NCBI GenBank assembly: GCA_040754095.1
Contig: JBFMFO010000004.1
Span: 3,475 to 67,474, forward strand
DNA length: 64,000 bases
Direction: 5' to 3'
From: Thermodesulfobacteriota bacterium
GTDB lineage: Bacteria; Desulfobacterota; QYQD01
Shown: piece after piece, positions 1,839 to 52,880 of the stretch
Numbering within the stretch: position 1 is the stretch's first letter
Layout of the letters: every line of letters begins with the position of its first letter
Notes under the pieces: generated by a model
What the model was told of the DNA's origin: nothing
The model's input: the letters and a program-made list of their open reading frames with translations, nothing else
Database searches by the model: none
Made by a program: the position numbers and the translations under genes

Positions 1839-3770
1839 TTATGACGCCCAGATAAGCTCACCGGTTTGGCTCGTATCATAGCCGCCCAACTGTTCAACGA
1901 TTTCCTTAAACTCAGGTGACATGATAACTGCCATGAGTGCACGGATTCTTTCATCATCCCAAAACATAGCCGGTATGACCAGATCGTAACGTTCCTTAAC
2001 TACCGAAATAAAATCTAACCCTAGCGCCCTGGCTGCCGCATATATGCCCAGGCCTACATCAGCGCTGCCGCTTAAGACATCCACGGCTACCGACATGTGG
2101 GTGTATTCTTCCCTTTCATAGCCGGTTATTTCAGCAGGAGAGATACCCAACTTTTTTAGCTGGAAATCAAGCAGGATGCGGGTGCCGGAGCCTGCCTGCC
2201 GGTTGATAAAGCCTACATCTTTACGCCTGAGATCGTGAATGGACCGGATTTCTTTCGGATTCCCTTTTGCGACCATTAACCCCTGCTCCCGATAGACCAG
2301 ATTTACCAATTTTACCGGGACATTGAGGATTATTTTTTTGATATATGGAATGTTATATTCTCCTGTTTCCGGATCAAAGAGGTGCGAGCCGGCCAGATGG
2401 GCCATGCCTTTGCCGATGGCCAGCAGCCCGCCGGTACTGCCGACATGGCTGGAGGACAGGCTTAACCGGGGAGTCCTTTTTTTGATCTCGTTGGCTAACA
2501 CGTCTATGGTGAGGTCATGGCTTCCGATGATGACCATGGTATCTGTGATTTCACGGGCTTCTTTTAAAAGTTCTATCTCCACTTCTTCATCGGCGTTTAT
2601 TCCCTCGGAAAGATGCGGTATGCGCAGTATGCCGTCGGCCTTGGTCAGGGTAGTAATCGCGCCGGCCCCGCGGGGCAGGGGAGTAGCGATGGTCGTATCG
2701 CCTACGCGGCCTACGTTGACCCTGAGGAATTCCTCCGTGCCCAGCTTGGAAGGGATCTTGCGCGCCGGTCTGGCCGTGATACGGGGACGTTCCGGTGGAG
2801 AGATGCCCAGCATTTTATAAAGAATGGGACGGACAAACCGGTCGAAGGAGATGACGGCCGATACCGGGTAGCCCGGATTTCCTATGACCGGCTTGCCGGA
2901 GATGGTGCCGAGTATCGTAGGCTTCCCCGGCATAATAGTCACTCCGTGCACCAGAACCTGGCCTAATTCTTTTATGACCTTAAAGGTATAGTCTTCCGAG
3001 CCGGCCGAGGAGCCGGCATTAATTATTACGCAGTCATAATCGGCGGCGCAGGCCTTTTGTACGGCGTCTTTGATACGGGCATAATCATCGGATATTATCT
3101 CGTGCCGGGTGGCGATGGCCCCGCATTTTTCCACCAGACCGGCCAGGATATGCGAGTTATATTCGACGATCTTTCCCCGGGGAGGTACATCACCGGTAAT
3201 GTCTTCGGCGGCTATGAGTTCGCTGCCGGTAGGTATGACGGCCACACGCGGTTTTTTCTTTACCGGAAGCATAAATATCCCGCCGGCCAGGAGCGCGCCG
3301 ATGTCAAACGGTGTTACGCGATGGTTCTGAGGCAATACCAGTTCGGTGGCCACGATGTCCTCGCCTACCTTGCGCACGTATTTCCAGGGATGGGCCGGGG
3401 CCTGTATTTCCACAGTGTTTTCGTCCAACTGGTGGACTTCCTCGATCATAATAACGGCATTGGTTCCGGGCGGCAGGATATGGCCGGTGTTCACAAAGAG
3501 TGCCTTTTTGCCGACGGTCAGTTGTCTGGGATTTCCTTCAGAGGCGCCGTAGGTATCTTCAGCCATAACGGCTATGCCGTCCATGGCCGCGGAGTGAAAG
3601 GACGGGGAAGAAAAACGGGCATATACAGCCTCGTCTGTGATTCGGCCCAGGGCCTCAGTCGCAGGAATCTTTTCGCTCTTGAGTATATGTGCATAATCAA
3701 GGGCATTGAAGAATATCTCCTGGGCCTCGGCCAAGGTCTTCATTTCCAGATAGATTTTCCGCAAAGCCAT
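1839..3770 (-). CDS. moeA: MoeA molybdopterin molybdo/tungsto-transferase fused to a C-terminal periplasmic-binding-protein-like (molybdate/tungstate-binding-like) domain
   Basis: 643 aa. The N-terminal ~400 aa carry the MoeA core (SPSFHSAAMDG..., GGVSVG-like region); the C-terminal ~240 aa form a PBP-like extension. ATG has a GGAGG RBS. Confidence 0.8.
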   Translation of the reverse strand: MALRKIYLEMKTLAEAQEIFFNALDYAHILKSEKIPATEALGRITDEAVYARFSSPSFHSAAMDGIAVMAEDTYGASEGNPRQLTVGKKALFVNTGHILPPGTNAVIMIEEVHQLDENTVEIQAPAHPWKYVRKVGEDIVATELVLPQNHRVTPFDIGALLAGGIFMLPVKKKPRVAVIPTGSELIAAEDITGDVPPRGKIVEYNSHILAGLVEKCGAIATRHEIISDDYARIKDAVQKACAADYDCVIINAGSSAGSEDYTFKVIKELGQVLVHGVTIMPGKPTILGTISGKPVIGNPGYPVSAVISFDRFVRPILYKMLGISPPERPRITARPARKIPSKLGTEEFLRVNVGRVGDTTIATPLPRGAGAITTLTKADGILRIPHLSEGINADEEVEIELLKEAREITDTMVIIGSHDLTIDVLANEIKKRTPRLSLSSSHVGSTGGLLAIGKGMAHLAGSHLFDPETGEYNIPYIKKIILNVPVKLVNLVYREQGLMVAKGNPKEIRSIHDLRRKDVGFINRQAGSGTRILLDFQLKKLGISPAEITGYEREEYTHMSVAVDVLSGSADVGLGIYAAARALGLDFISVVKERYDLVIPAMFWDDERIRALMAVIMSPEFKEIVEQLGGYDTSQTGELIWAS

Positions 3771-3805
3771 GACCTCCTGATTCTTCAGAATTAGCTGTTC
3801 AATTT

Positions 3806-3953
3806 CTCACGCAAAGGCGCAAAGTGCGCAGAGCAAAAATGTATTAAGCCCAAATGCCGCAATACTTTTAACATTTGAACTTTGGGCTTGACTTGACATT
3901 TGAGCTTTATCATTTGTCATTTGACTTTGTAGTCTTTGCGTCTTTGCGGTGAG
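3806..3953. repeat. ~150-bp intergenic element bounded by inverted repeats CTCACGCAAAG...CTTTGCGGTGAG, carrying a GCGCAGAG motif and TTTGA-rich repeats (family with 5399-5480 and 54261-54420)
   Basis: Direct reading: terminal IRs, tandem CGCAAAG repeats and a GCGCAGAGCAAAAATGTATTAAG block shared with 54268-54300. Confidence 0.5.
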
Positions 3954-3959
3954 TGGTTT

Positions 3960-5294
3960 TCAAAATAAATAGACATCGACTATGGAATCCTTATCCAGTC
4001 CTTCTGTATTCATATCGACCCTGATTAATCCGTGGGCCTTGGTCATAGTGGAGATAAGCCCTGATTTGCCGAAGACAGGTTCGGCTACATAACCCGTTTC
4101 ATCTGAAAATCCCCCTGTGTCTCCCTTTCCCAAAGGGGGAATATGATGTGCTCCCCCCTTTTTAAAGGGGGGATGGGGGGATTTGAACGGCGCGTGTTTT
4201 TCATCAGGGAGGATGCGCACCCGGACATAGTCTTCCCGGCCCTGCGCAGACGGCACATTACGAGACAGCCGGGCCTTTATGAGTTGTGAGTGAGCTATTG
4301 TTTGTGGCTCAAGTCCTCCGATCCGTTGCAGCAAAGGACGGACAAAAAGCCAAAAAATAATCATGGAAGATGCCGGATGGCCGGGCAATCCCCAGAGGGC
4401 CTTCTTTCCGATCCGGGCCAGGATGGTAGGCTTTCCCGGACTTACGGATACGCCGTGCAACAGTATCCGGCTTTCAGGAAAGGACTCGAACACCGCGACC
4501 GTAAAATCCCGGCTGCCTACAGAACTCCCGCCGGATACAAGGATAATATCCGCCTGTTCTATCCCTTCGATGCACTTTGCGCGAAGGGCGTCAAATTTGT
4601 CCGGCACGATGCCCAGGTAACCAGGTATCCCGCCGTTTTCAAACACTGCGGCCCAAAGCGTATAGGCGTTGATGTCTCTTATTTTACCGGGGGGCGGCAT
4701 CTCTTGAATCGGGACTATCTCGTCTCCTGTGGAGATAATAGCCACCCGTGGTTTTTGATGAACAATGATTTTTTGCCGGCCAATTGCGGCCAATGCCCCA
4801 ATATCCTGAGGGCGTAACCTGTGTCCTCTGGACAGGATTTCTTCGCCTTTTTTCAAGTCTTCTCCACGCAGAATAACGTGTTCGCCGGGGGCGACCGTTT
4901 TCATGACCTCAATAGTCGTCTCGTCCGCTTGTTGTGTATATTCCTGCATGACTACGGCATCACCCCCTGGAGGGAGCATGCCGCCGGTCAGGATCCTGTA
5001 TGCCTGCCCACCCGAAAGCGCCCGGGAAGGAGATGCGCCCATATCTACGCTGCCGGCTATGGTCAGCAAGGCGGGCATACTTTCAGAGGAACCGAAGGTA
5101 TCTCTGGCCCGAACCGCATATCCATCCATAGTGGAACGGCTAAAGGGCGGCATATCTTCCGGTGAGATAACGGGTTCAGCCAAAATGCGCCCGGCACCTT
5201 CCGGCAGAGAGATTTCTTCCGTAGGTCCAACCGGGAACTCGTTGATAATAGCGAATACCTCGTCGGATGTCTTGACCTTAAAGAATTCTTTCAT
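3960..5294 (-). CDS. moeA: MoeA molybdopterin molybdenumtransferase paralog carrying an in-frame 37-codon repeat-element insertion
   Basis: 444 aa with MoeA N- and C-domains (SRSTMDGYAVRARD..., AEPVFGKSGLISTMTKAHGLIRV). The extra segment KHAPFKSPHPPFKKGGAHHIPPLGKGDTGGFSDETGYV is encoded by the palindromic element at 4104-4200. Confidence 0.8.
   Translation of the reverse strand: MKEFFKVKTSDEVFAIINEFPVGPTEEISLPEGAGRILAEPVISPEDMPPFSRSTMDGYAVRARDTFGSSESMPALLTIAGSVDMGASPSRALSGGQAYRILTGGMLPPGGDAVVMQEYTQQADETTIEVMKTVAPGEHVILRGEDLKKGEEILSRGHRLRPQDIGALAAIGRQKIIVHQKPRVAIISTGDEIVPIQEMPPPGKIRDINAYTLWAAVFENGGIPGYLGIVPDKFDALRAKCIEGIEQADIILVSGGSSVGSRDFTVAVFESFPESRILLHGVSVSPGKPTILARIGKKALWGLPGHPASSMIIFWLFVRPLLQRIGGLEPQTIAHSQLIKARLSRNVPSAQGREDYVRVRILPDEKHAPFKSPHPPFKKGGAHHIPPLGKGDTGGFSDETGYVAEPVFGKSGLISTMTKAHGLIRVDMNTEGLDKDSIVDVYLF
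4104..4200. repeat. MITE-like nested palindromic element, copy A (inside the moeA CDS)
   Basis: TGAAAATCCCCC...TCCCTTTCCCAAAGGGGGA...CTCCCCCCTTTTTAAAGGGGGGA...GGGGGATTTGAA. Terminal IRs AAAATCCCCC/GGGGGATTT enclose two internal hairpins. Related copies lie at 39304-39400 and 52769-52880. Confidence 0.75.
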
Positions 5295-5398
5295 TTTTGT
5301 TTCATAATAGAGTATCTTATAATATCTGCCTTACAAGGGACACAGAGATAAAAATTTCGAAGTGCGAATTTTGATGAACTCGTAAAAAGTAAAATTTT

Positions 5399-5480
5399 AC
5401 CGCAGAGATCGCGGAGAACGCCGAGATAACATATTGAATGGTTTAAGATTTTCCTCTGCGCCCTCTGCGTGCTCTGCGGT
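5399..5480. repeat. IR-bounded element (ACCGCAGAG...CTCTGCGGT) with three tandem CTCTGCG 9-mers, upstream of fdhD
   Basis: Perfect 9-bp IR arms at 5399-5407 and 5472-5480. The 9-bp-periodic repeats run CTCTGCGCC, CTCTGCGTG, CTCTGCGGT. Confidence 0.5.
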
Positions 5481-5527
5481 GAAACATCTTTTTTGCGAAT
5501 TGATCAATTTTAAAGGAGTTATCCATC

Positions 5528-6256
5528 ATGTCTTCCGGGCTCATTAAATCATTCCCGGTCATTCAAGTCAATAAAAATGGCCGCCAGATGGTCTCAGACG
5601 AGGTGGCATGTGAGACGCCCTGCCATCTTTTTATAGACCGGAACCTGGTTGCTACGGTTAGCGTCTCACCCATGGACCTGGAGGATTATGCCGTTGGCCG
5701 TGTGGTGACGGATGGGTTTTTGGCCTTTGAGGAGATCGCCGAAGTCAATATCGACGAAGCTGGAATCCATGTACGCAGCAAGACGGGTGTAGCTGTCGGC
5801 GAAAGACCGTCAGGGGATATTTCACCCATAGATTCGGCGCTGCAAATCTCGGAAAGGCAGGTACTGTCCTGCGCCGGTTCTTTATCCTCCTTTGCAGGCC
5901 ATTGGCAGAGGACGGGGGGATTGCACATTGCGGTCTTGTTTGACCGCCGTAGCGAGCTGATCCGGGCAGCGGAAGATGTCGGGCGTCATAACGCGGTGGA
6001 CAAGGTGGTGGGCCATGCCTTTAAAAACGGCCATAATCTTTCGGAATGTTTTCTGGTGTGCAGCGGCCGGCAACCGGAGGATATGGTGGCCAAGGTCGCC
6101 AGGGCAGGTATCCCCGTTGTTATTTCACGCGCGGCAACTACCGATCGGGGCATTGCCCTGGCGGATAAAGTCGGCCTGACGTTGATCGGCTTTGCCCGGG
6201 AGGATCGTTTTACCGTTTACACTCATCCCGATAGAATTATCAAATCTTCCTTATAA
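5528..6256 (+). CDS. fdhD: formate dehydrogenase accessory sulfurtransferase FdhD
   Basis: 242 aa: CETPCHLFIDRNLVATVSVSPMDLEDYAVGRVVTDGF and VGRHNAVDKVVG are FdhD motifs. Confidence 0.8.
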   Translation: MSSGLIKSFPVIQVNKNGRQMVSDEVACETPCHLFIDRNLVATVSVSPMDLEDYAVGRVVTDGFLAFEEIAEVNIDEAGIHVRSKTGVAVGERPSGDISPIDSALQISERQVLSCAGSLSSFAGHWQRTGGLHIAVLFDRRSELIRAAEDVGRHNAVDKVVGHAFKNGHNLSECFLVCSGRQPEDMVAKVARAGIPVVISRAATTDRGIALADKVGLTLIGFAREDRFTVYTHPDRIIKSSL

Positions 6257-6371
6257 AGTGTGTATAGGCACAACATATAGTGTGCCAATCTCATCCGACA
6301 ACAATATGATATTATTAATATTTGCTCATGTGTATATTTTAACAAAAAGTGAGTGTTCATTCATTTAATAC

Positions 6372-6400
6372 TTGACAGTGTCGGGATCTTACAGTATATA
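6372..6400 (+). promoter_or_regulatory. sigma70-type promoter for sat (TTGACA-17-TATATA)
   Basis: TTGACA at 6372-6377, 17-nt spacer, TATATA at 6395-6400. This gives a ~180-nt leader before sat. Confidence 0.5.
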
Positions 6401-6580
6401 AAAACCCTAAGTCTAAAAATAGATTTTTTGTGCTTTAAGCCTTTGGCTTGTAGATAGTATTTAATGGAGGGGGGTGTTTTGGGAGGACCGAGGTAAAAAT
6501 ATCATTTCATGTCTATTAAATGGTGAGGCGTAACGACGCATTGCCACATTATTATTGATGAATCATAAGGAGGAAATAGA

Positions 6581-7825
6581 ATGGCTTTAATTGAACCACA
6601 TGGCGGAAGAGGTTTGGTATGTAGTTTACTGGAGGGGAAAGATCGTGAAGCGGAATTGACCAAGGCAAAAACCCTGAAGCAGGTCCGGATCCATTCGCGG
6701 GCTACTTCTGACCTGATAATGATGGGTATCGGGGCCTTCAGCCCGTTGCACGGATTCATGACCAAGAAGGATTGGAAGGGTGTGTGCGAGAACTTCACGA
6801 TGGCCGACGGCACCTTCTGGCCGATTCCTATTACGGTTGACTGCAGCAAGGCAGATGCCGACGCGATCAAACCGGACTCAGAGATCGCTCTGGTGGATGA
6901 CGCTACCGGCACGATTATGGCGACGATGAAGGTGGTAGAGAAGTATGATATGACCGAGGCCGACAAGAGCTGGGAATGTATGCAGGTCTTCACGACGGAT
7001 GATATTGCAGGCCATCCCGGTGTCGAGAAAGTACATAAACAAAAAGAAGTCAACCTGGCCGGCCCGGTGAAGGTATTGAGCGAACTGGACTTCCCTACAA
7101 AGTTTGCAGGCATCTATAAGAGACCGGCGGAAGTGAGACAGATATTCCAGGATAAGGGGTGGAGCCGTATCGCCGCGTTACAACTTCGTAATCCGATGCA
7201 TCGTTCACATGAATACCTGGCCAAAATCGCTATCGAGGTCTGTGACGGTGTCATCATCCATTCGCTGATCGGTGCATTGAAATCCGGTGATATACCTGCT
7301 GACGTTCGTGTCAAGTGTATAGATGTCCTGGTTGAGAACTACTTCAATAAGGACATGGTGGTGCAGGCCGGCTATCCTATGGAAATGCGTTATGGCGGGC
7401 CGAGAGAGGCCTTGCTCCACGCCACGTTCCGTCAGAACTACGGTGTCACCCACATGCTTATCGGCCGCGATCATGCCGGTGTGGGCGATTACTACGGCAT
7501 TTTTGATGCCCAGACGATCTTCGACAAGATCCCGAAGGGCGAAGGCGGAAAGTATCTCAAATGCAAGCCGCTGAAGATCGACTGGACGTTCTACTGCCAT
7601 AAGTGCGACGGCATGGCCTCAATGCGCACCTGCCCGCACACCAAGGCGGATCGCGTCATCCTGAGCGGCACCAAGCTGCGCAAGATGCTGTCCGAGGGCG
7701 AGGAGGTTCCGGATCATTTTGGCCGTAACGAAGTCCTCGATATCCTGAGAAAATACTACTCGGGACTGACCGAGAAGGTAGAGATCAAGCTGCAGAAGTT
7801 TGCCACGGGTGAGGAGATGAAGTAA
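6581..7825 (+). CDS. sat: sulfate adenylyltransferase (ATP sulfurylase)
   Basis: 414 aa: [13 protein letters not shown] and GRDHAGVG motifs; typical Sat of sulfate reducers. Confidence 0.9.
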
Positions 7826-17984: not shown

Positions 17985-18030
17985 TGAACCGATTTGACTT
18001 CTAATGCCCCGTGCGGAAGCACGGGGTTCT
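17985..18030. repeat. CCGATTT-N-ATGCCCCGTGCGGAAGCACGGGG hairpin motif, related to the 5' ends of the 155-bp repeats at 38791 and 42468
   Basis: GAACCGATTTGACTTCTAATGCCCCGTGCGGAAGCACGGGG compared with TAACTCCGATTTATATGCCCCGTGCGGGAGCACGGGG. Confidence 0.5.
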
Positions 18031-36395: not shown

Positions 36396-38099
36396 TTGTA
36401 CAAAAAGCAGGTTTTAAGCAAGGAACTTCTCGCCGCCGAAAAGGGAGTAATCAGGAAGAAATGGCACGGTAAATTACCCGTAGCCCTCATTTATCCCAAC
36501 CATTACCATGTGGGCATGTCCAGCCTGGGCTATCAGGTCGTTTATGCCCTTTTTAATCGGAATCCGTGCGTGGTCTGTGAACGCATCTTCCTGCCGGAGG
36601 AGGGCGAATCTCCTTTTTCCATAGAGTCCCACCGGCCCCTGACCGATTTTAAGGTCCTGGCATTTTCCATCTCTTTTGAGAACGATTATCTGAATGTCCT
36701 GAAGATCCTCCAGGCCTCAGGCATCCCCATACGGACAGAAGATCGCAGCGATAAACATCCTCTGGTCATGGCCGGGGGGGTAGCAACCTTCCTCAATCCG
36801 GAGCCATTGGCCGGATATATAGACTGCTTTTTACTGGGCGAGGGGGAAGAAACCATTCCGCCTTTTCTCGATCTGTTGATAGAAAAGCAGTTTTTCGGAC
36901 AGGATCGCCGGAAGGCGCTCCGGGAACTGGCCTCCCGCCTTGACGGCCTCTATGTCCCGCAATTCTATCAGCCGGGCTACGATAAAAAGGGACGGTTAAA
37001 ATCCTTTGAGCCGGTTGAAGGGTTGCCGCAGAGCGTAAAAAGAATGAGCGTGCCTATAGTAAGGGCCGCCGAGAGACACACTATTGTCCTTACCCCCAAC
37101 ACCGAATTTGGAGACAAATTTCTTATTGAGATAGGGAGCGGATGTTCGCGAGGATGTCGTTTCTGTGCGGCGGGTTTTATCTATCGTCCGCCCCGGCCCT
37201 GGCCGGAAGAAGTCATAAATAGGGTAATTGCCGGGGCCGGGGATATTGATAAGGTGGGTCTGGTAGGGGTAGAGATTGCCGATGCCGAGGCCATAGAGCG
37301 TATCTGCAAGCATCTCATCGCACACGGTAAGGAGGTTTCGTTTTCGTCCCTGCGGGCGGACTGCCTGACCCCGGAACTCCTGGCCGCCCTGAAAACCGCC
37401 GGGTTAAAGACGGTCACCATAGCTCCAGACGCCGGATCGGAGCGCCTGCGGCGGGTAATTAATAAGGGACTGGATGAAAAAACCATAGTGGAGGCAACCG
37501 AGAGATTGGCTCAGTGGGATATCCTGAATCTCAAGCTCTATTTTATGATCGGCCTGCCTACGGAAGAAAGAGAAGATGTAGAGGCCATTGTCCACCTGAC
37601 CAAAAAGATAAAACATCATATCCTTAAAATATGCCGGGATAAAAGGCGCATGGGTACCATAACGCTCAGTGTTAACTGCTTCGTGCCCAAACCCTGGACG
37701 CCTTTCCAGTGGGTGGCCATGGATGAGTTGGAGTCGCTGCAGGACAAGATAAAGATTATCAGTCACGGCCTGCGCCACGAGGGAAACGTCCGAACCACGT
37801 TCGATGTGCCCAAGTGGGCTTACGTGCAGGCCCTCCTGGCCCGAGGAGATCGCCGGATCGGGTCTTTCCTGGAGGCGGCGTTAAAGACAGGTAGCTGGAA
37901 GAAGGCTTATAAAGAAGTGGACTTAAATCCTGATTTCTTTGTCTCCCGCGAGCGGGATCGGGATGAACTTTTCCCCTGGGATTTTATCGGCCATGGCATA
38001 AATAAAGACTACCTGTGGGAAGAATACCAGAAGGCCCTGAAGGCCGAAAAGACCATCCCCTGCCAGGTGGGAATATGCAAGCGGTGCGGGGTGTGCTGA
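36396..38099 (+). CDS. B12-binding-domain radical SAM protein
   Basis: 567 aa: CSRGCRFCAAGF CxxxCxxC radical-SAM motif preceded by a B12-binding-like N-domain. TTG start with a GGAG RBS; C-terminus ...CQVGICKRCGVC. Confidence 0.8.
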   Translation: MYKKQVLSKELLAAEKGVIRKKWHGKLPVALIYPNHYHVGMSSLGYQVVYALFNRNPCVVCERIFLPEEGESPFSIESHRPLTDFKVLAFSISFENDYLNVLKILQASGIPIRTEDRSDKHPLVMAGGVATFLNPEPLAGYIDCFLLGEGEETIPPFLDLLIEKQFFGQDRRKALRELASRLDGLYVPQFYQPGYDKKGRLKSFEPVEGLPQSVKRMSVPIVRAAERHTIVLTPNTEFGDKFLIEIGSGCSRGCRFCAAGFIYRPPRPWPEEVINRVIAGAGDIDKVGLVGVEIADAEAIERICKHLIAHGKEVSFSSLRADCLTPELLAALKTAGLKTVTIAPDAGSERLRRVINKGLDEKTIVEATERLAQWDILNLKLYFMIGLPTEEREDVEAIVHLTKKIKHHILKICRDKRRMGTITLSVNCFVPKPWTPFQWVAMDELESLQDKIKIISHGLRHEGNVRTTFDVPKWAYVQALLARGDRRIGSFLEAALKTGSWKKAYKEVDLNPDFFVSRERDRDELFPWDFIGHGINKDYLWEEYQKALKAEKTIPCQVGICKRCGVC

Positions 38100-38139
38100 T
38101 ACATAAAATGGCAAAGCGCATTAACCGTGAGGTTAAGAC
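38010..38139 (+). repeat. R1: native 3' end of the radical SAM gene plus ~40 bp downstream (reference copy of a triplicated ~130-bp direct repeat)
   Basis: CTACCTGTGGGAAGAATACCAGAAGGCCCT...GGCAAAGCGCATTAACCGTGAGGTTAAGAC. Degenerate copies lie at 39029-39156 and 40298-40425. Confidence 0.8.
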
Positions 38140-38221: not shown

Positions 38222-38455
38222 ATGAGAACTGTGCAGATGACACTCGATGACGATCTGGTAGAGGCAGTAGACCGTGCTGCGAAACGGCTTCACACATCAC
38301 GATCGGCTTTTACCAGGGATGCGTTGCGTGATGCGCTCACGCGCTACAGTGTAGCAAGGCTCGAGCAGAAGCACCGCCGGGGATACAAGGCGCAACCCGT
38401 CAAGAAGGGCGAGTTCAGTGTGTGGGAAGATGAGCAGGCGTGGGGGGATGAATGA
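38222..38455 (+). CDS. ribbon-helix-helix (CopG-like) antitoxin
   Basis: 77 aa: MRTVQMTLDDDLVEAVDRAAKRLHTSRSAFTRDALRDAL. Stop overlaps the toxin start (ATGA). Confidence 0.7.
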   Translation: MRTVQMTLDDDLVEAVDRAAKRLHTSRSAFTRDALRDALTRYSVARLEQKHRRGYKAQPVKKGEFSVWEDEQAWGDE

Positions 38456-38763
38456 AACGGGGAGAAGTTCGCTGGTACAAGTTCCTCCATCCTGATAAAA
38501 AGCGTCCCGTGCTCATACTGACGCGAGATTCCATTCTTGACTATCTCGGTGAAGTCACCATAGCGCCTATTACTACCACCATCAGGGACATCCCAAGCGA
38601 GGTCTTTCTTTCTCGGCAAGACGGGCTGCCTCATGATTGCGCTGTGAACTGTGATCATATCCAAACTGTATCGAAAGGCAAGATAGGCTCACTCATCACA
38701 ACTCTCCCGGCAAACAAGATGATTGAAGCTGGACGTGCCATCGCATTCGCCCTGAATCTCTGA
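38452..38763 (+). CDS. MazF/PemK-family toxin
   Basis: 103 aa: RGEVRWYKFLHPDKKRPVLILTRDSILDYLGEVTIAPITTT. Confidence 0.7.
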   Translation: MKRGEVRWYKFLHPDKKRPVLILTRDSILDYLGEVTIAPITTTIRDIPSEVFLSRQDGLPHDCAVNCDHIQTVSKGKIGSLITTLPANKMIEAGRAIAFALNL

Positions 38764-38790
38764 ATAGGAGAAGGGCTGTCCATCGCTTTA

Positions 38791-38945
38791 TAACTCCGAT
38801 TTATATGCCCCGTGCGGGAGCACGGGGAACCATATGCTGGGGGTCGAGGGGGGCGCTAAGCATCCCCTTGTCAAGGGCGGGGTTAATGCCCCGCCCGCGA
38901 AGACGAGTTGAGCGAGCGCATTGTGCGAGCTCGACGAGTTTACTT
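38791..38945. repeat. Q1: 155-bp structured repeat, identical to 42468-42622
   Basis: Contains hairpins CCCCGTGCGGGAGCACGGGG and GGGCGGGGTTAATGCCCCGCCC. Letter-for-letter identical to the second copy. Confidence 0.8.
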
Positions 38946-39028
38946 TAAGGCATTTTCTCTCATTTACTCTTCAGTTCCTCGATCCACTCCGGCGGGACTC
39001 CGGCGCGGTAGGCATCCCGGTAGCCCCT

Positions 39029-39156
39029 ACCTGTGGGAAGGATACCAGAAGGCCCTCAAGGCCGAAAAGACATCCCCTGCCAGGTAGGGAAGTGCAAGCG
39101 GTACGGGGTATGCTGATACACAAAATGGCAAAGCGCATTAACCGTGAGGTTAAGAC
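39029..39156 (+). repeat. R2: degenerate copy of the radical SAM 3' end (~88% identical, 1-nt deletion)
   Basis: ACCTGTGGGAAGGATACCAGAAGGCCCTCAAGGCCGAAAAGACATCCCCTGCCAGG...GCGCATTAACCGTGAGGTTAAGAC. Confidence 0.75.
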
Positions 39157-39303
39157 CTCCCAGCAGAATAAACGGATTACAGCCGACGTAATAAGTATCC
39201 GCCCGACTAATAGAAGACACGTAGTTTACTTAATTAAGGATGTTCCATTTTCTTCCCCCAAAAACTACTTTCTGAGTATCAGTTTAGCTGGTTGAAAAAG
39301 TAT

Positions 39304-39400
39304 TTTAAAATCCCTCCCAACCTCCCTTTTCCAAAGGGAGGAGAAACACCTCCCCCCTTGAAAAAGGGGGATTAAGGGGGATTTTTGAGGCGCCGTTTTT
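39304..39400. repeat. MITE-like nested palindromic element, copy B
   Basis: TTTTAAAATCCCTCCC...CCTCCCTTTTCCAAAGGGAGGAG...CCTCCCCCCTTGAAAAAGGGGGATTAAGGGGGATTTTTGA. Confidence 0.7.
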
Positions 39401-39477: not shown

Positions 39478-39792
39478 ATGCCGTGCTATTATGTATATGT
39501 GATTCAGGCATTCAAGAATAAAGGGACAGAGGATATTTTTAATGGTAAAAATACAAAAGAAGCCAGAAAAGTATGTCCTCGATCACTATGGCAAGTCGCC
39601 TCAAGAAAACTGGATCAACTCGATTCTGTTCAATTCTTGGATGAGTTACGTATTCCACCTGGAAACAAGCTTGAGGCTTTATCAGGAAACAGAGAAGGGG
39701 AATATAGTATTCGCATAAATGACCAGTATCGGATTTGTTTCAAGTGGACAGAGGCTGGTCCCGATGTAGTTGGAATTACTGATTACCACTAA
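39478..39792 (+). CDS. higB: HigB-type toxin (RelE/ParE superfamily)
   Basis: ...IQAFKNKGTEDIFNG...LEALSGNREGEYSIRINDQYRICFKW. The real start may be in-frame GTG 39499. A TTGAAA-17-TATTAT promoter with an ATAGCA/TGCTAT IR sits upstream. Confidence 0.75.
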   Translation: MPCYYVYVIQAFKNKGTEDIFNGKNTKEARKVCPRSLWQVASRKLDQLDSVQFLDELRIPPGNKLEALSGNREGEYSIRINDQYRICFKWTEAGPDVVGITDYH

Positions 39793-39814
39793 TTTTTTAA
39801 AAAAGGGGATAGAA

Positions 39815-40144
39815 ATGGTTCGTGTACGTGTACCTACACACAGGGAGCCAACGCATCCTGGTGAAATGTTACTTGAAGAGTTCTTGATTCCCATGGGTAT
39901 TACTCAAAGGGAATTAGCAAATGCTATTCATGTTCCCTACCAGCGTGTCAATGAAATAATTAATAAGCGGCGGGGAATAACACCAAGTACAGCATTACGC
40001 CTTGCTAGATTTTTTGGCATGTCAGAAGATTTCTGGATAAGTCTCCAATTGCGCTGGGATTTATTCAAAGCAAAACAAACAGAGATTAATGAATTGAAGG
40101 CTATCAAACCGTTCCCCTTAAGTCACCATGCTGCTCATTCATAA
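39815..40144 (+). CDS. higA: HigA-type HTH (XRE) antitoxin
   Basis: MVRVRVPTHREPTHPGEMLLEEFLIPMGITQRELANAIHVPYQRVNEIINKRRGITPSTALRLARFFG. ATG 39815 has an AAGGGGA RBS; the track ORF begins at 39770. Confidence 0.75.
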   Translation: MVRVRVPTHREPTHPGEMLLEEFLIPMGITQRELANAIHVPYQRVNEIINKRRGITPSTALRLARFFGMSEDFWISLQLRWDLFKAKQTEINELKAIKPFPLSHHAAHS

Positions 40145-40297: not shown

Positions 40298-40425
40298 CCT
40301 GTGGGAAGAATACCAGAAGGCCCTCAAGGCCGAAAAAACCATTCCCTGCCAGGCAGGAAAGTGTAGGCGGTGTGGGGCCTGCTAATACGCAAAACGGCAA
40401 AGCGCATTAACCGTGAGGTTAAGAC
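40298..40425 (+). repeat. R3: degenerate copy of the radical SAM 3' end
   Basis: CCTGTGGGAAGAATACCAGAAGGCCCTCAAGGCCGAAAAAACCATTCCCTGCCAGG...GGCAAAGCGCATTAACCGTGAGGTTAAGAC. Confidence 0.75.
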
Positions 40426-40611
40426 CCTATCAGGCGGGCGATAGATTGGCTGGAGAAACAAGTAAGCAGAAAAAACATAGTGAGAAACAACGTTAAATAC
40501 GACGGATTATAAAGTGCGTTTTGTGCACCGCTCACCGCTAACAGGTGGCGTCTTGGCGCGTGTGATGCACTACGTTTTGGGCTTTCCGCACTATTAGAGG
40601 AGGATTAAGGC

Positions 40612-41688
40612 ATGGTAACCAAGCTGAATATTAGTGGATTTAAGGGGTTTGAAAAGCTCGAATTGCCCCGATTGTCCAGGTTTACACTTCTGGGTGGACG
40701 AAATAACGTTGGAAAGACCTCTGTCCTCGAAGCTGTGTTTATGTTCTTCGACAGGCTTAACCCTCAAATGATTCTCCGCCAGTTTGATTGGCGCGGCGTG
40801 AACGCTGTATCACTAGAGCCTGACACTCTGTGGGCGCCGGTGTTTTTCAATTATGACCTCGGGAAGCCAATGGCTATTTGTGCAGTTATTGATGGTAGCG
40901 AAGAAAAAATGACCGTGAAATTCAATCCAAACTACGTTGAACCTGGGATACAGGCGAAGGCATCCGATTCGGGAATGAAACCTCTTCACGTGCGAACAGA
41001 CCAGAAGCCCATCCCTTCCTACGCTCTGGACATTGAATATAGAAGAAAACAAGAAAGGGTACAGGTATCGCACATGTTGATAGGACCGAGCGGAATCGGC
41101 TTACGAATCGACCATGCAAAGGTAAAACAGCGGGCTGCGGTTTTCCTTGTATCCAGAATGCATGTCAACCCATCGGAAGACGCCGAGCGGTTTGGCCAGC
41201 TTGACATTGTGGGACAACAGGACAGAATCCTTGAGTTTCTGCGACTGGTGGAACCCAAGCTGAAGAGCCTATCATCCATTGCTATGGGTGATACTTCGCT
41301 GATCCATGGGGATATTGGTCTATCAAGAAAAATCCCCGTATCCTACATGGGGGAAGGTGTCTCTCGGCTGCTTTCGATTATTCTGGCCATAGCCACCTCA
41401 AAAAATGGCGTCGTACTTATCGATGAGTGCGAGAATGGCATCCATTATTCGATTATGTCCAAAGTTTGGGAAGCCATAGGGAAAGCGGCCCGGGAATTCG
41501 ATTGTCAGGTAATTGGAACAACACACAGTTACGAATGTCTTAGATCCGCCTACGAAGGGTTTGGCGGAGAGTTGAAACAGGATTTCAGCTACGTGCGTCT
41601 TGACAGAATAGACGATAACGTGGTGGCCAAAACGTTTGAGTATGAGCTGCTAAAAACTGCAATTGAGTCCGGGATGGAGGTACGCTGA
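40612..41688 (+). CDS. ABC-type (SMC/RecF/OLD-like, AAA_21/AAA_15-type) ATPase, candidate defence ATPase
   Basis: 358 aa: ISGFKGFEKLELP...LLGGRNNVGKTSVLEA (Walker A), VVLIDECENGIHYSIM (Walker B/D-loop), IGTTHS (H-loop). GGAGG RBS; 1-nt gap to the next gene. Confidence 0.7.
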   Translation: MVTKLNISGFKGFEKLELPRLSRFTLLGGRNNVGKTSVLEAVFMFFDRLNPQMILRQFDWRGVNAVSLEPDTLWAPVFFNYDLGKPMAICAVIDGSEEKMTVKFNPNYVEPGIQAKASDSGMKPLHVRTDQKPIPSYALDIEYRRKQERVQVSHMLIGPSGIGLRIDHAKVKQRAAVFLVSRMHVNPSEDAERFGQLDIVGQQDRILEFLRLVEPKLKSLSSIAMGDTSLIHGDIGLSRKIPVSYMGEGVSRLLSIILAIATSKNGVVLIDECENGIHYSIMSKVWEAIGKAAREFDCQVIGTTHSYECLRSAYEGFGGELKQDFSYVRLDRIDDNVVAKTFEYELLKTAIESGMEVR

Positions 41689-41690
41689 CT

Positions 41691-42329
41691 ATGGTACGAC
41701 CTCCTGTTCAGATAAAGGAAAAGAAACTATTACTGGTGGAAGGAACCGACGCCTTATACTTTGCTGTATGGGCATACCAGGCATTTGGTGCAACGGGAAT
41801 GCAGGTGTTGAACTTCGGCGGCAACACGGAACTTGGCTTGTATTTGAGATCGCTAACCCAGTTATCGGGTTACGAGGGTATAGAAGCAATAGCCATTGCG
41901 CGTGATGCCGAAAACGATCCGAAAGGGGCAATTGACAGTATTAGGAAAGCATTAAAGGCTTCCGGCCTTTCTGTCCCAAAAGTGCCCTTTCAATTCGAAG
42001 GCTCTTCTCCCAAAATAGCCTTTATGGTCTTCCCAGGGTTTTCCGTTGATCCGGACGGCAATGAGTATGTTGCACCGGGGACACTGGAAGACCTTTGTCT
42101 GGAAACACTCGAGGATACCAAAGTTCTGAGTTGTGTTGACCAGTATATCTCTTGCCTGGAAACCGCGGGAGAACCGGTTAGATGTCTTCACAAATCGAGA
42201 CTTCACGCCTATCTCGCCGGTAAAAGCAATTTCGTGGGCCTGAAGATCGGCGAAGCGGCTAAGGCTGGCGCCTGGAATTGGCAACACCCCGGGCTGGAAC
42301 CGTTCAAACGCATTATTTTGGGCATGTAG
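41691..42329 (+). CDS. small Toprim-like partner protein, possibly DUF4276/DUF4435-like; putative nuclease effector
   Basis: 212 aa: KKLLLVEGTDALYF (conserved Glu in strand 1) and IAIARDAENDPKG (acidic D..E.D motif) suggest a Toprim-like fold. Translationally coupled to the ATPase gene. Confidence 0.5.
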   Translation: MVRPPVQIKEKKLLLVEGTDALYFAVWAYQAFGATGMQVLNFGGNTELGLYLRSLTQLSGYEGIEAIAIARDAENDPKGAIDSIRKALKASGLSVPKVPFQFEGSSPKIAFMVFPGFSVDPDGNEYVAPGTLEDLCLETLEDTKVLSCVDQYISCLETAGEPVRCLHKSRLHAYLAGKSNFVGLKIGEAAKAGAWNWQHPGLEPFKRIILGM

Positions 42330-42467: not shown

Positions 42468-42622
42468 TAACTCCGATTTATATGCCCCGTGCGGGAGCAC
42501 GGGGAACCATATGCTGGGGGTCGAGGGGGGCGCTAAGCATCCCCTTGTCAAGGGCGGGGTTAATGCCCCGCCCGCGAAGACGAGTTGAGCGAGCGCATTG
42601 TGCGAGCTCGACGAGTTTACTT
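42468..42622. repeat. Q2: 155-bp structured repeat identical to Q1, nested between 17-bp perfect inverted repeats (42405-42421 and 42679-42695)
   Basis: Flanking IR ACGGGCTGTTGCCCAAA / TTTGGGCAACAGCCCGT seen directly in the sequence. Confidence 0.8.
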
Positions 42623-42927: not shown

Positions 42928-43752
42928 ATGCCCACGAAACACAAGCGATTTAAACTCATTCTGGAGTACGATGGCGGCCGTTACAGTGGCTGGCAGAAGC
43001 AGAAGGATACAAAAACCATCCAAGGGAGTCTCTTGCGGTGCGCAGGCGAACTTTTCGGGGAGCAGGTGGATATTCAGGGCAACGGGCGCACCGATGCCGG
43101 CGTCCATGCCTTGGAGTACGTTGCCCACCTGGAGGCAGCGACCGATCTCGGCCCGCAGGAGATCGTCCGGCGGCTCAATGACATTCTACCCCAGGATATA
43201 AATGTCCTGAAAGTGGAAAGGGCGGGATCCCAGTTCCATGCCCGTCATGATTGCGTGGGACGCAGTTACCTGTATCAGATTGCCAAGCGTAAAACCGTCT
43301 TCCGCAGGCATTACGCCTGGTGGGTGAAAGACCCCCTCAAGGTGCCGGTCATGCGGGAGGCGTCAGCCTTACTGACCGGGATGAATGACTTTTCCTCCTT
43401 TACAGACCGCCAGGCCATCAAGAAAAAATCTCCTTTGGTTATGGTCAACAATACGTTGCTGCACGAAACTGACGACATCATCCTTTTCCGTATTGTCGGC
43501 TCCCATTTCCTCTGGAAGATGATCCGCCGGATCGTCGGCGTGCTGGTTGCCGTGGGGAATGGCAGCCTCAGTGTTGATGAGGTACGGCGTTTTCTTGTGG
43601 AGCCGGTGAACTTGAACCGTTTTACTGCCCCAGCCCACGGCCTCTTCTTTGAACGTGCCTTTTACAACGATGAAGAGCTAAAAGGATTTATCAGTTCGGA
43701 AGAAATCCCGCCCGCTCCTACGCACCAGGTGCAGGCCCAACCCCTGACGTAG
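42928..43752 (+). CDS. truA: tRNA pseudouridine(38-40) synthase TruA
   Basis: 274 aa: LILEYDGGRYSGWQKQ and GRTDAGVHA catalytic Asp motif. Confidence 0.9.
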   Translation: MPTKHKRFKLILEYDGGRYSGWQKQKDTKTIQGSLLRCAGELFGEQVDIQGNGRTDAGVHALEYVAHLEAATDLGPQEIVRRLNDILPQDINVLKVERAGSQFHARHDCVGRSYLYQIAKRKTVFRRHYAWWVKDPLKVPVMREASALLTGMNDFSSFTDRQAIKKKSPLVMVNNTLLHETDDIILFRIVGSHFLWKMIRRIVGVLVAVGNGSLSVDEVRRFLVEPVNLNRFTAPAHGLFFERAFYNDEELKGFISSEEIPPAPTHQVQAQPLT

Positions 43753-52144: not shown

Positions 52145-52768
52145 TTACTTACTCTTCAGTTCCTTAATCCATTCCGGCGGGGCTCCGGCGCGGTAGGCAT
52201 CCTGGATAAGACCCTGGTCAAGCATGTATTGGGCCTTTTTGGCTTTTTCTTCCAGTTCCGGCGTGATCTCCTGCAACCGTTTCAATTCCCGGTAGTCATC
52301 AATAAGTGGCCCCTGGTTAAGGATGATGCCCTCTTCAGTGCGTGTTCCCTGCCTTACCCTTCCCCGGCGTAACGTCGCTATATCCTCATTATTTTTTTTA
52401 ACTTGTTCGGTTAACCGTTTGACCTCATCCTGCCACTTTTTCTTTTGCCCCAGCCACCATTCTTTATTTTGTCCCCTCACATCGGTGCGGGTATCCGGCT
52501 TTTCCTCTGCTGATAGGGGCGGCGGTACAGGTGATACGGTCGGCGCTATGGATTTCTCCGGTGCGGGTGGCGGGGGTGGCCGCCTATCTATGCTTTTTTG
52601 CTCTGCGCGTCCCTTAAATCTGGAAGGTACATTTTCCGGATTATCTGTGTAATGTGTTACGCCCTTCTCGTCTGTCCATTTATATATCGTACCCTGGGCG
52701 AAGGAAACAGATACAGAAATTACACAGACGGTAGCGATAACCAGTTTATACCATAAGGATATTTTCAT
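52145..52768 (-). CDS. DUF4124-domain secreted protein with Pro-rich linker and coiled coil
   Basis: 207 aa: signal peptide, IYKWTDEKGVTHYTDNPENVP (DUF4124-like), then a PPPPPAPEK linker. Its ATGAAA start abuts the MITE copy C. Confidence 0.6.
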   Translation of the reverse strand: MKISLWYKLVIATVCVISVSVSFAQGTIYKWTDEKGVTHYTDNPENVPSRFKGRAEQKSIDRRPPPPPAPEKSIAPTVSPVPPPLSAEEKPDTRTDVRGQNKEWWLGQKKKWQDEVKRLTEQVKKNNEDIATLRRGRVRQGTRTEEGIILNQGPLIDDYRELKRLQEITPELEEKAKKAQYMLDQGLIQDAYRAGAPPEWIKELKSK

Positions 52769-52880
52769 CTGAAAATCCCCCTGTATCCCCCTTTTCCAAA
52801 GGGGGAATTGATGGGACTTCGTCTTTCCCCAAAAGGGGGGCTTAACGGATGCCCCCGTTTTAGTAAAGGGGGGTAAGGTC
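52769..52880. repeat. MITE-like nested palindromic element, copy C
   Basis: CTGAAAATCCCCCTGTATCCCCCTTTTCCAAAGGGGGAATTGATGGGACTTCGTCTTTCCCCAAAAGGGGGGCTTAACGGATGCCCCCGTTTTAG. Confidence 0.7.

Follow-up and report, generated by a model that had tools for sequence, protein, structure and literature searches.

Here, we describe a two-gene module in a 64,000-nucleotide stretch of DNA from Thermodesulfobacteriota bacterium (GTDB lineage Bacteria; Desulfobacterota; QYQD01), which spans positions 3,475 to 67,474 of the forward strand of contig JBFMFO010000004.1 (GenBank assembly GCA_040754095.1) and is referred to below as the window. The module consists of a compact ABC ATPase (gene A) followed by a small protein of the family DUF3226 (gene B), and it is probably a self-contained, horizontally mobile conflict module that pairs the ATPase with a Toprim-nuclease effector. 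An anti-phage role of the abortive-infection type is likely. A first-pass annotation, made from the letters of the window, had put these genes forward as a candidate split defence pair resembling OLD and PARIS, and evidence from fold, motifs, linkage, genomic context and evolutionary rate now supports that proposal.

The gene pair and its products

Gene A (40612-41688, + strand) encodes a 358-residue SMC/Rad50/OLD-type ABC ATPase, the putative sensor and regulator. The 212-residue product of gene B (41691-42329, + strand) belongs to DUF3226, has an OLD-like Toprim fold and would act as an Mg2+-dependent nuclease effector. Coordinates, strand and lengths of the two open reading frames (ORFs) agree with the first-pass annotation, and all of the motifs quoted there are present in the two proteins, but the 1-nt gap it gave between the genes has to be corrected: the stop codon of gene A (TGA, 41686-41688) and the ATG of gene B at 41691 are separated by a spacer of 2 nt (ct). 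As read from the sequence, each gene has a ribosome-binding site of its own, namely a Shine-Dalgarno GAGGAGG (40597-40603, + strand) located 8 nt 5' of the start codon of gene A and a GGAGG (41676-41680, + strand) that lies within the 3' end of gene A and serves gene B. Both proteins are on record at 100% identity in a Thermodesulfobacteriota metagenome-assembled genome (MAG; P0001 and P0121), and the homologues of each number in the hundreds, with E-values reaching 1e-83 for the gene B protein and 1e-171 for the ATPase; the two ORFs are therefore real genes and not chance ORFs. Additionally, the identical gene pair occurs in two Logan unitigs (L048 and L049, 2.1 and 2.0 kb), which are independent short-read assemblies from at least two sequencing runs. 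A scan for promoters and terminators found sites no more numerous than in shuffled sequence.

The gene B protein scores 62.3 bits with the Pfam family DUF3226 (PF11536), for which the gathering cut-off is 27, and its residues 11-208 align to positions 1-202 of the 208-position profile; the same family is matched by all 38 of its close homologues. This takes the place of the DUF4276-type identity suggested earlier, for which Pfam gave no match. The protein had no match in NCBIfam and no family in PHROGs. Its very confident AlphaFold model (pLDDT 95.7, pTM 0.90) displays a four-stranded parallel sheet with flanking helices, a glutamate after beta1, a glycine after beta2, a DxD-equivalent motif after beta3, an extra acidic residue and a lysine in the C-terminal helical part, all of them features of an OLD-like Toprim domain. 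The first proposal of a Toprim fold is consequently borne out by the predicted model and the conserved acidic motifs. The top structural match of the model is PH0156 of Pyrococcus horikoshii (PDB 2P62), a structural-genomics protein whose likeness to the gene B protein is one of structure (12% identity), and the OLD-family structures are the best matches after it. Sequence searches of the PDB chains, with the gene B protein alone or with a 38-sequence profile, gave no match, PH0156 included.

The family is large and uniform in architecture. When 1.84 billion cluster representatives (50% identity clusters) were searched with a profile, 3,663 DUF3226 relatives were recovered at E <= 0.001, and the best 150 of these representatives are, bar one, 136-264 aa long, nearly all being standalone proteins of 190-240 aa. 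The only long protein in the best 150 (P0274, 443 aa) has two matched stretches, which may stem from tandem duplication or from the fusion of two DUF3226 domains.

Conservation was assessed in an alignment of 134 DUF3226 representatives that are 29-46% identical to the gene B protein. The Toprim glutamate motif E17-G-T-D20 (41739-41750, + strand; in the context KKLLLVE17-G-T-D20), at the end of beta1 and the start of alpha1, has E17 conserved in 99% and D20 in 96% of the 134 sequences. At the end of beta3, the DxD-equivalent D72-A-E74 (41904-41912, + strand; IAIAR-D72-A-E74-NDPKG) has D72 in 100% and a glutamate or aspartate at position 74 in 99%. The putative metal-B ligand motif T131-L-E133 (42081-42089, + strand) lies at the start of the first helix after the sheet (residues 132-138), with E133 conserved in 99%, and K168 (42192-42194, + strand), located in the C-terminal helical part on helix 166-177 of the model, is invariant in 100% of 135 sequences. 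The two-metal site and catalytic lysine of BpOLD comprise E400, E404, D455, D457, T506-x-E508 and K562 (PMC6755086), and the acidic set of AriB comprises E26, D30, D88, E90 and E122 (PMC11464382). By motif spacing and secondary-structure position, E17/D20 parallel BpOLD E400/E404 and AriB E26/D30, and D72/E74 parallel BpOLD D455/D457 and AriB D88/E90; the spacing of T131-x-E133 equals that of BpOLD T506/E508, and K168 is a candidate counterpart of the catalytic K562. Judged from these motifs and the predicted model, gene B putatively encodes a small Toprim nuclease with a complete OLD-type two-metal site made up of E17, D20, D72, E74 and T131/E133, together with K168.

The ATPase belongs to Pfam AAA_15 (1.7e-21) and AAA_21 (1.5e-17), and its top structural matches are SMC/Rad50 heads; NCBIfam gave only sub-threshold matches to its N-terminus (MAD3, PtuA, RecF, Rad50). 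In the Walker A motif or P-loop G28-S37 (GGRNNVGKTS; 40693-40722, + strand), residues G28, G29, N31, G34, K35 and S37 are invariant among 34 ATPase homologues. The same holds for G247, G249, D271, E272, E274, N275, G276 and H278 in the segment that carries the signature-like M246-G-E-G249, the Walker B residues D271-E272, the D-loop E274-N-G276 and H278 (41347-41445, + strand), in which the Walker B/D-loop stretch reads V-V-L-I-D271-E272-C-E-N-G276, and for T303, H305 and S306 of the H-loop T303-T-H305-S306 (41518-41529, + strand). As the residues of all these motifs are invariant among homologues, gene A is expected to encode an active ATPase.

Among the PADLOC models, the best full-length matches of the ATPase are PDC-M38A (PDLC04611, 2.6e-50; four more PDC-M38A models match at 5.6e-35 to 7.3e-22) and one AbiLi model (PDLC02336, 1.8e-49), to which residues 1-358 align over positions 1-340 of 340; a second AbiLi model is matched at 2.6e-11. 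The models of AriA, NsnB, HEC-01A, GajA, PtuA and Old match far more weakly. The earlier description of the protein as an SMC/RecF/OLD-type ABC ATPase agrees with its Pfam families, its motifs and these defence-model matches, and the best matches, PDC-M38A, AbiLi and AriA, are all models of defence systems, which sets the protein apart from housekeeping ABC proteins.

Between the P-loop and the signature, the ATPase model is mostly built of beta strands, with a low-confidence loop at residues 110-135 and without a long coiled coil. This part contains a hypervariable, beta-rich insert (residues ~81-180; 40852-41151, + strand), delimited from column identity and the model, in which the mean column identity over 41 loci is 0.18-0.24 compared with 0.5-0.66 in the nucleotide-binding motifs, making it the least conserved region of the ATPase. 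We propose the insert as the trigger-sensing surface, on which a phage cue may be recognised, in keeping with the general notion that trigger specificity in defence ABC ATPases is determined by their inserts (bioRxiv 10.1101/2024.01.29.577857).

Linkage, neighbourhoods and rate of evolution

To place the pair among its relatives, 185,579 species genomes (one per species) were scanned with a single peptide pattern, and the resulting counts are a lower bound. At least 47 loci with a DUF3226 relative were found, and in 44 of the 47 the gene immediately upstream, on the same strand, codes for a homologue of the ATPase. The three loci that lack a full upstream ATPase are one that starts at a contig end, one with a 36-residue fragment and a fragmentary ATPase match, and one (L015) with ~840 nt of upstream sequence in which there is no ATPase match. 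The hosts represent eight or more phyla and comprise Thermodesulfobacteriota, Nitrospirota, Armatimonadota, Planctomycetota, Lentisphaerota, Bacillota, Synergistota and Dehalococcoidia. The pair is split into two ORFs in each of the 40 complete related loci, and in 36 of these 40 pairs the distance from stop to start ranges from a 4-nt overlap to 5 nt. The identity matrices of the two proteins are strongly correlated over the 40 complete pairs (r = 0.90, Mantel p = 0.001), and clustering of all flanking ORFs revealed no third gene common across taxa. The module is strictly of two genes, and these are co-inherited.

Many of the neighbourhoods are of a defence type. Relatives of the pair adjoin type IIG restriction-modification and DISARM-like genes, a setting like that of the PDC candidate systems discussed below; a type IIG enzyme recurs upstream of the pair in four loci, and in a Desulfuromonadales locus the genes that precede the pair encode an SNF2-PLD protein, a DUF1016 nuclease, a type IIG Eco57I-like enzyme and a DUF4238 protein. 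In Methylomusa anaerophila, the pair adjoins Dcm-Vsr where a P2-like prophage ends, in a region that is also an IMG/VR viral contig. Two further loci (L025 and L026) have AbiE-like genes downstream of the pair, recognised by sequence motif only, and in another locus the pair adjoins a LonC-like protease.

The Dehalococcoidia provide a series of alleles at one site. In nine genomes (L030, L034, L036-L039, L041, L044 and L046) the pair occupies one chromosomal position, at ~4830-6660, and the five flanking genes compared are 75-99% (mostly 85-99%) identical, compared with 44-68% for the ATPase and 57-76% for the DUF3226 protein. Conservation among these ATPase alleles is 95-99% over the first ~40 residues and falls to 24-33% over residues 81-180. 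Such fast, local divergence at a fixed locus is expected of an arms-race sensor or of allele replacement by recombination, and it argues against a housekeeping role. In L034 and L037 compared with L030, the ATPase (68%) is more conserved than the DUF3226 protein (57%), the opposite of the other genomes, and this reversal suggests mosaic alleles that arose via recombination inside the operon.

Setting within the window

The pair is located in an island between a radical-SAM gene (36396-38099) and truA (42928-43752), just 3' of a cell-division gene cluster. Pfam identifies a ribbon-helix-helix (RHH)/MazF pair (38222-38763) and a HigB/helix-turn-helix (HTH) pair (39478-40144), after which the ATPase/DUF3226 pair is the third cassette, as the first-pass annotation had described it in placing the pair third beside toxin-antitoxin modules. 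ORFs and Pfam searches gave no methyltransferase, integrase or helicase in the island, which also agrees with the earlier remark that no methyltransferase accompanies the pair; no integrase or transposase lies inside or adjoining it, and Rfam and tRNA scans of the island returned nothing real. The GC content is 47-50% in the gene pair, 40-44% in higBA and 50-57% in the flanks (composition profile), a mild dip that is not decisive as a sign of foreign origin.

The cassettes are bounded by repeats. A 128-nt direct repeat, D1, is present in three copies with 87-92% mutual identity by blastn (38012-38139, 39029-39156 and 40298-40425, the last being D1c, + strand), and these precede the MazEF, HigBA and ATPase/DUF3226 cassettes, respectively, so that D1c bounds the cassette of the pair on the left. 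The unit comprises the ~88 nt that end the radical-SAM ORF and ~40 nt downstream of it, and it was not seen beside homologous pairs elsewhere. On metagenome contig L061, the two halves of D1 lie 325 nt apart, and an HTH ORF resembling HigA has the second half (GGCAAAGCGCATTAACCGTGAGGTTAAGAC) at its 3' end; given these split halves, D1 looks like the 3' end of the radical-SAM gene fused to a remnant of the 3' end of higA.

On the right, the cassette is bounded by D2b (42468-42622, + strand), one of two 100% identical copies of a 155-nt structured element, D2, the other copy being at 38791-38945. D2 folds into four hairpins (-85 kcal/mol, z = -6.9 against shuffles) and has no Rfam match. It behaves as a small insertion, either like a miniature inverted-repeat transposable element (MITE) or as a structured RNA, because L061 lacks it at the matching position, where the equivalent of 38299-38795 runs directly into that of 38942-39116. 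The first hairpin of D2 (CCCCGTGCGGRAGCACGGGG) is found a third time in the window, at 18007-18026.

Other small elements accompany the island. A long hairpin at 39303-39389, upstream of higB, for which Rfam gave only spurious sub-threshold matches to miRNA families, could serve the HigBA cassette as a terminator or as an operator-like palindrome. At 52149-52205 (57 nt, 91%) and 52772-52806 (35 nt, 89%), the window holds sequences that resemble the intergenic parts of the island at ~38964-39020 and 39351-39385, which suggests that the genome may hold more copies of small repeats at other places.

The cargo of the site differs among related metagenome contigs, and we therefore regard the site as a strain-variable hotspot for defence and toxin-antitoxin cargo. 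One of these contigs (L063, Ga0209614_1004713) is 93% identical over ftsZ and the radical-SAM gene, and there, at the same site (3353-6467 of that contig), an Eco57I/N6_Mtase type IIG-like gene replaces the toxin-antitoxin and ATPase cassettes; this gene is read as two overlapping ORFs and may be frameshifted. On another contig, the site is occupied by MazEF, an HTH antitoxin and a ParE-like pair. That the tandem cassettes are an artefact of MAG assembly is unlikely, as the junction between D2a (38791-38945) and D1b (39029-39156) is unique sequence and the Logan unitigs break exactly at the repeats: L048 and L049 terminate inside D1 and D2, which would be expected of repeats that are real in those samples too.

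Relation to known systems

The closest relatives of the pair are PDC-M38 and AbiL, with PARIS, Gabija and OLD being more distant. The first-pass annotation had refrained from naming a system; with these comparisons, the pair can at least be placed near a catalogued candidate, PDC-M38, and near AbiL. Like the pair in the window, PDC-M38 is a two-gene operon (A and B), and it is one of 145 candidates identified by their location inside BREX, DISARM and type I restriction-modification loci (bioRxiv 10.1101/2024.01.29.577857). The PDC-M38B models are matched by 20 of the 38 homologues of the gene B protein (best 1.3e-8) and by 64 of 82 diverse DUF3226 members (best 1.4e-19). The gene B protein itself is at the edge of these models, so the system might be missed by PADLOC when run automatically. 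A literature search found no published experimental support for PDC-M38.

AbiL of Lactococcus, consisting of the ABC ATPase AbiLi and the RloB-like Toprim protein AbiLii, is an experimentally shown abortive-infection system, and AbiLii has been predicted to belong to the OLD-type Toprim proteins (PMC13064643). An AbiLii model is matched by four of the 38 homologues and by 11 of the 82 diverse DUF3226 members (best 1.2e-6), and from the sequence comparisons AbiL would be the closest relative among experimentally shown systems, albeit only through its ATPase. Other models matched by these 82 members are mad4 (11), AriB (6) and GajA (several), and Pfam OLD-like_TOPRIM is weakly matched by seven of the 38 homologues (best 0.0029).

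Further assignments were tried and set aside. The fused OLD classes 1-3 do not apply to two ORFs split by a stop codon, and Gabija does not apply to an island that holds no helicase and to related loci that have no conserved third gene. For MADS, the ATPase reaches 45.8 bits against the MAD3 cut-off of 420, over the N-terminus only, and the island has no methyltransferase. A literature search found no paper mentioning DUF3226, and in a published phylogeny of AAA_15/21 defence ATPases DUF3226 is not among the annotation domains.

Proposed mechanism and alternatives

In the mechanism that we propose, the two proteins would be co-produced by coupled translation and would assemble as a complex in which the ATPase keeps the nuclease in check. 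A phage product, recognised via the variable insert of the ATPase, would lead to an ATP-dependent rearrangement that frees or activates the nuclease, and this would cut nucleic acid, either tRNA (the PARIS target) or DNA (that of OLD and Gabija), so that phage replication would stop at the price of growth arrest. Complex formation, sequestration, trigger, substrate and the anti-phage phenotype are all steps that we infer by analogy with the described systems, and for any specific trigger or substrate our confidence is low. The fold is nearer to the DNA-cutting OLD enzymes and the split architecture nearer to PARIS and AbiL.

Several observations weigh against a defence module with a Toprim-nuclease effector. 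On the side of the small protein, the match to Pfam OLD-like_TOPRIM (PF20469) remains below the cut-off (13.8 against 23.2 bits, E = 0.087, residues 11-58), a Foldseek search of the gene B model against the PDB returned no significant match, and in an hhalign comparison of the family profile with P2 Old the sole aligned stretch was KKLLLVEGT with EEVLLVEGK, its probability (0.2) being too weak to count; the active-site equivalences, as stated, come from spacing and secondary structure and not from three-dimensional superposition. The gene B protein reaches only E = 0.013 (13.2 bits) against PDC-M38B, and it has no match to the AbiLii models, to Pfam RloB or to an AriB model. The PDC systems are predicted candidates identified through "guilt by embedding", and HEC-01, another pair of an ATPase and a Toprim protein, gave no defence in the assays used (both bioRxiv 10.1101/2024.01.29.577857). 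As to mobility and context, one locus (L054) has the pair within a polysaccharide gene cluster, which is a non-defence setting, a scan of IMG/VR viral contigs found only two loci with relatives, and tblastn of the gene B protein against sequenced plasmids and phage genomes found no relatives. Finally, the evidence separates neither a DNA from an RNA substrate nor sequestration and release from an ATP-driven nuclease complex, and these two routes, both of them versions of the main reading, are weighed in the following.

In the first, which is a plausible minority reading, a stable ATPase-Toprim complex of the OLD/Gabija type would nick or degrade phage or cellular DNA, gated by the nucleotide state of the ATPase; OLD and Gabija degrade DNA (PMC10568477, PMC6755086). 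The small protein has in common with OLD classes 1-2 (P2 Old, TsOLD, BpOLD and GajA) the pattern E, E-or-D, DxD, TxE and K, in which T131-x-E133 and K168 reproduce the class 2 arrangement of metal-B ligand and lysine, and the matches of several DUF3226 members to GajA models point the same way. In OLD and GajA, however, both domains are in a single polypeptide, and class 2 needs a UvrD-like helicase, whereas the window has two chains and, like the related loci, lacks the helicase partner of Gabija. Furthermore, P2 Old interference has been linked to tRNA inactivation, as far as this is related by PMC10802264 through a reference it cites, and structural closeness to OLD therefore does not settle the substrate.

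The second route, of the PARIS type, is a minority reading only slightly less plausible. Here an oligomer of the ATPase would sequester a monomeric nuclease until a phage anti-restriction protein binds the ATPase, and release and dimerisation of the nuclease would lead to cleavage of host tRNA anticodon loops and to a halt of translation; in PARIS itself, a class 4 OLD-like system, sequestration, Ocr-triggered release and tRNA-Lys cleavage have been described (PMC11464382, PMC10802264). The split architecture and gene order are the same as in ariA-ariB, the pattern E-x-x-D, D-x-E and E parallels the acidic set of AriB (PMC11464382), the AriB model is matched by 6 of the 82 DUF3226 members, and an HHpred search with lactococcal AriB listed 2P62 (PH0156) as a match (PMC11381338). 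The position of the cassette among toxin-antitoxin modules and the restriction-modification neighbours in other genomes would also fit. Against this, AriB belongs to DUF4435, measures ~35 kDa and has a dimerisation region, whereas the gene B protein is a DUF3226 protein of 212 aa without a DUF4435 (PF14491) match at E <= 1, and AriA is a protein of ~55 kDa whose helical inserts build a hexamer, whereas the ATPase has 358 aa, a beta-rich variable insert and no coiled-coil legs. Additionally, processive DNA cleavage by BpOLD requires a lysine that K168 resembles (PMC6755086). Of the earlier label "PARIS-like", the part that refers to the split architecture stands, and the part that would imply a DUF4435 effector or an ATPase of the size of AriA does not.

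It is improbable that the pair is instead an addiction (post-segregational killing) module that would mainly stabilise the mobile cassette array or a carrier element and not act against phage. Its place as the third in a row after the RHH/MazF and HigB/HigA cassettes, bounded by repeats, would suit such a role, but many relatives are chromosomally stable without mobile-element genes nearby, as in the nine Dehalococcoidia genomes, and the fast evolution of the insert better fits recognition of a changing outside partner. Addiction and defence roles are mutually compatible.

A housekeeping DNA repair or recombination pair, such as RecF with RecR or SbcCD, is very improbable: the N-terminal 45 residues of the ATPase weakly match recF and Rad50 models, SMC/Rad50 heads head its structural matches and RecR has a Toprim domain (PMC6755086), but the recF match reaches only 25.9 bits against a cut-off of 172 and covers residues 3-45 only, the distribution is sporadic (the 47 loci from 185,579 species genomes being a lower bound from a single pattern), neighbourhoods vary widely among loci, evolution of the pair greatly outpaces that of the flanking genes in Dehalococcoidia, and it sits in a strain-variable hotspot.

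With a mobile ATPase-nuclease conflict module as the preferred reading, a further-reaching version can be put forward tentatively, although we consider it less likely than not. According to this, ATPase plus DUF3226 would be a distinct OLD-like immunity class of several thousand clusters, mostly from uncultured anaerobes, in which the beta-rich insert recognises phage, alleles are swapped at fixed sites and, in the present genome, the genes travel as an integrase-less cassette within a repeat-bounded hotspot, located where a radical-SAM gene has its 3' end. The trigger, oligomeric state and nuclease target of such a class may differ from those of PARIS, AbiL and Gabija.

Implications

Two-gene systems that combine an ABC ATPase with a Toprim protein are already well described, and a family of candidate models covers the gene A ATPase; our understanding of the ATPase-Toprim class as such is unchanged by this finding. 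The value of the data lies in a likely function for DUF3226, in the compactness of the system and in the Dehalococcoidia allele series. The DUF3226 family, the closest solved structure of which is 2P62, is tied here to the OLD-type Toprim nucleases, and in the recovered bacterial clades its members are almost always encoded by the second gene of an operon with a compact ABC ATPase. As this ATPase has only 358 aa and no coiled coil, the system is attractive for structures of infection-sensing ABC ATPases. The Dehalococcoidia alleles, with near-identical flanks and a hypervariable insert, represent a natural set for mapping trigger specificity. If phage protection by the pair proves true, the DUF3226 family (~3,700 clusters at 50% identity) and PDC-M38 would become a validated defence system.

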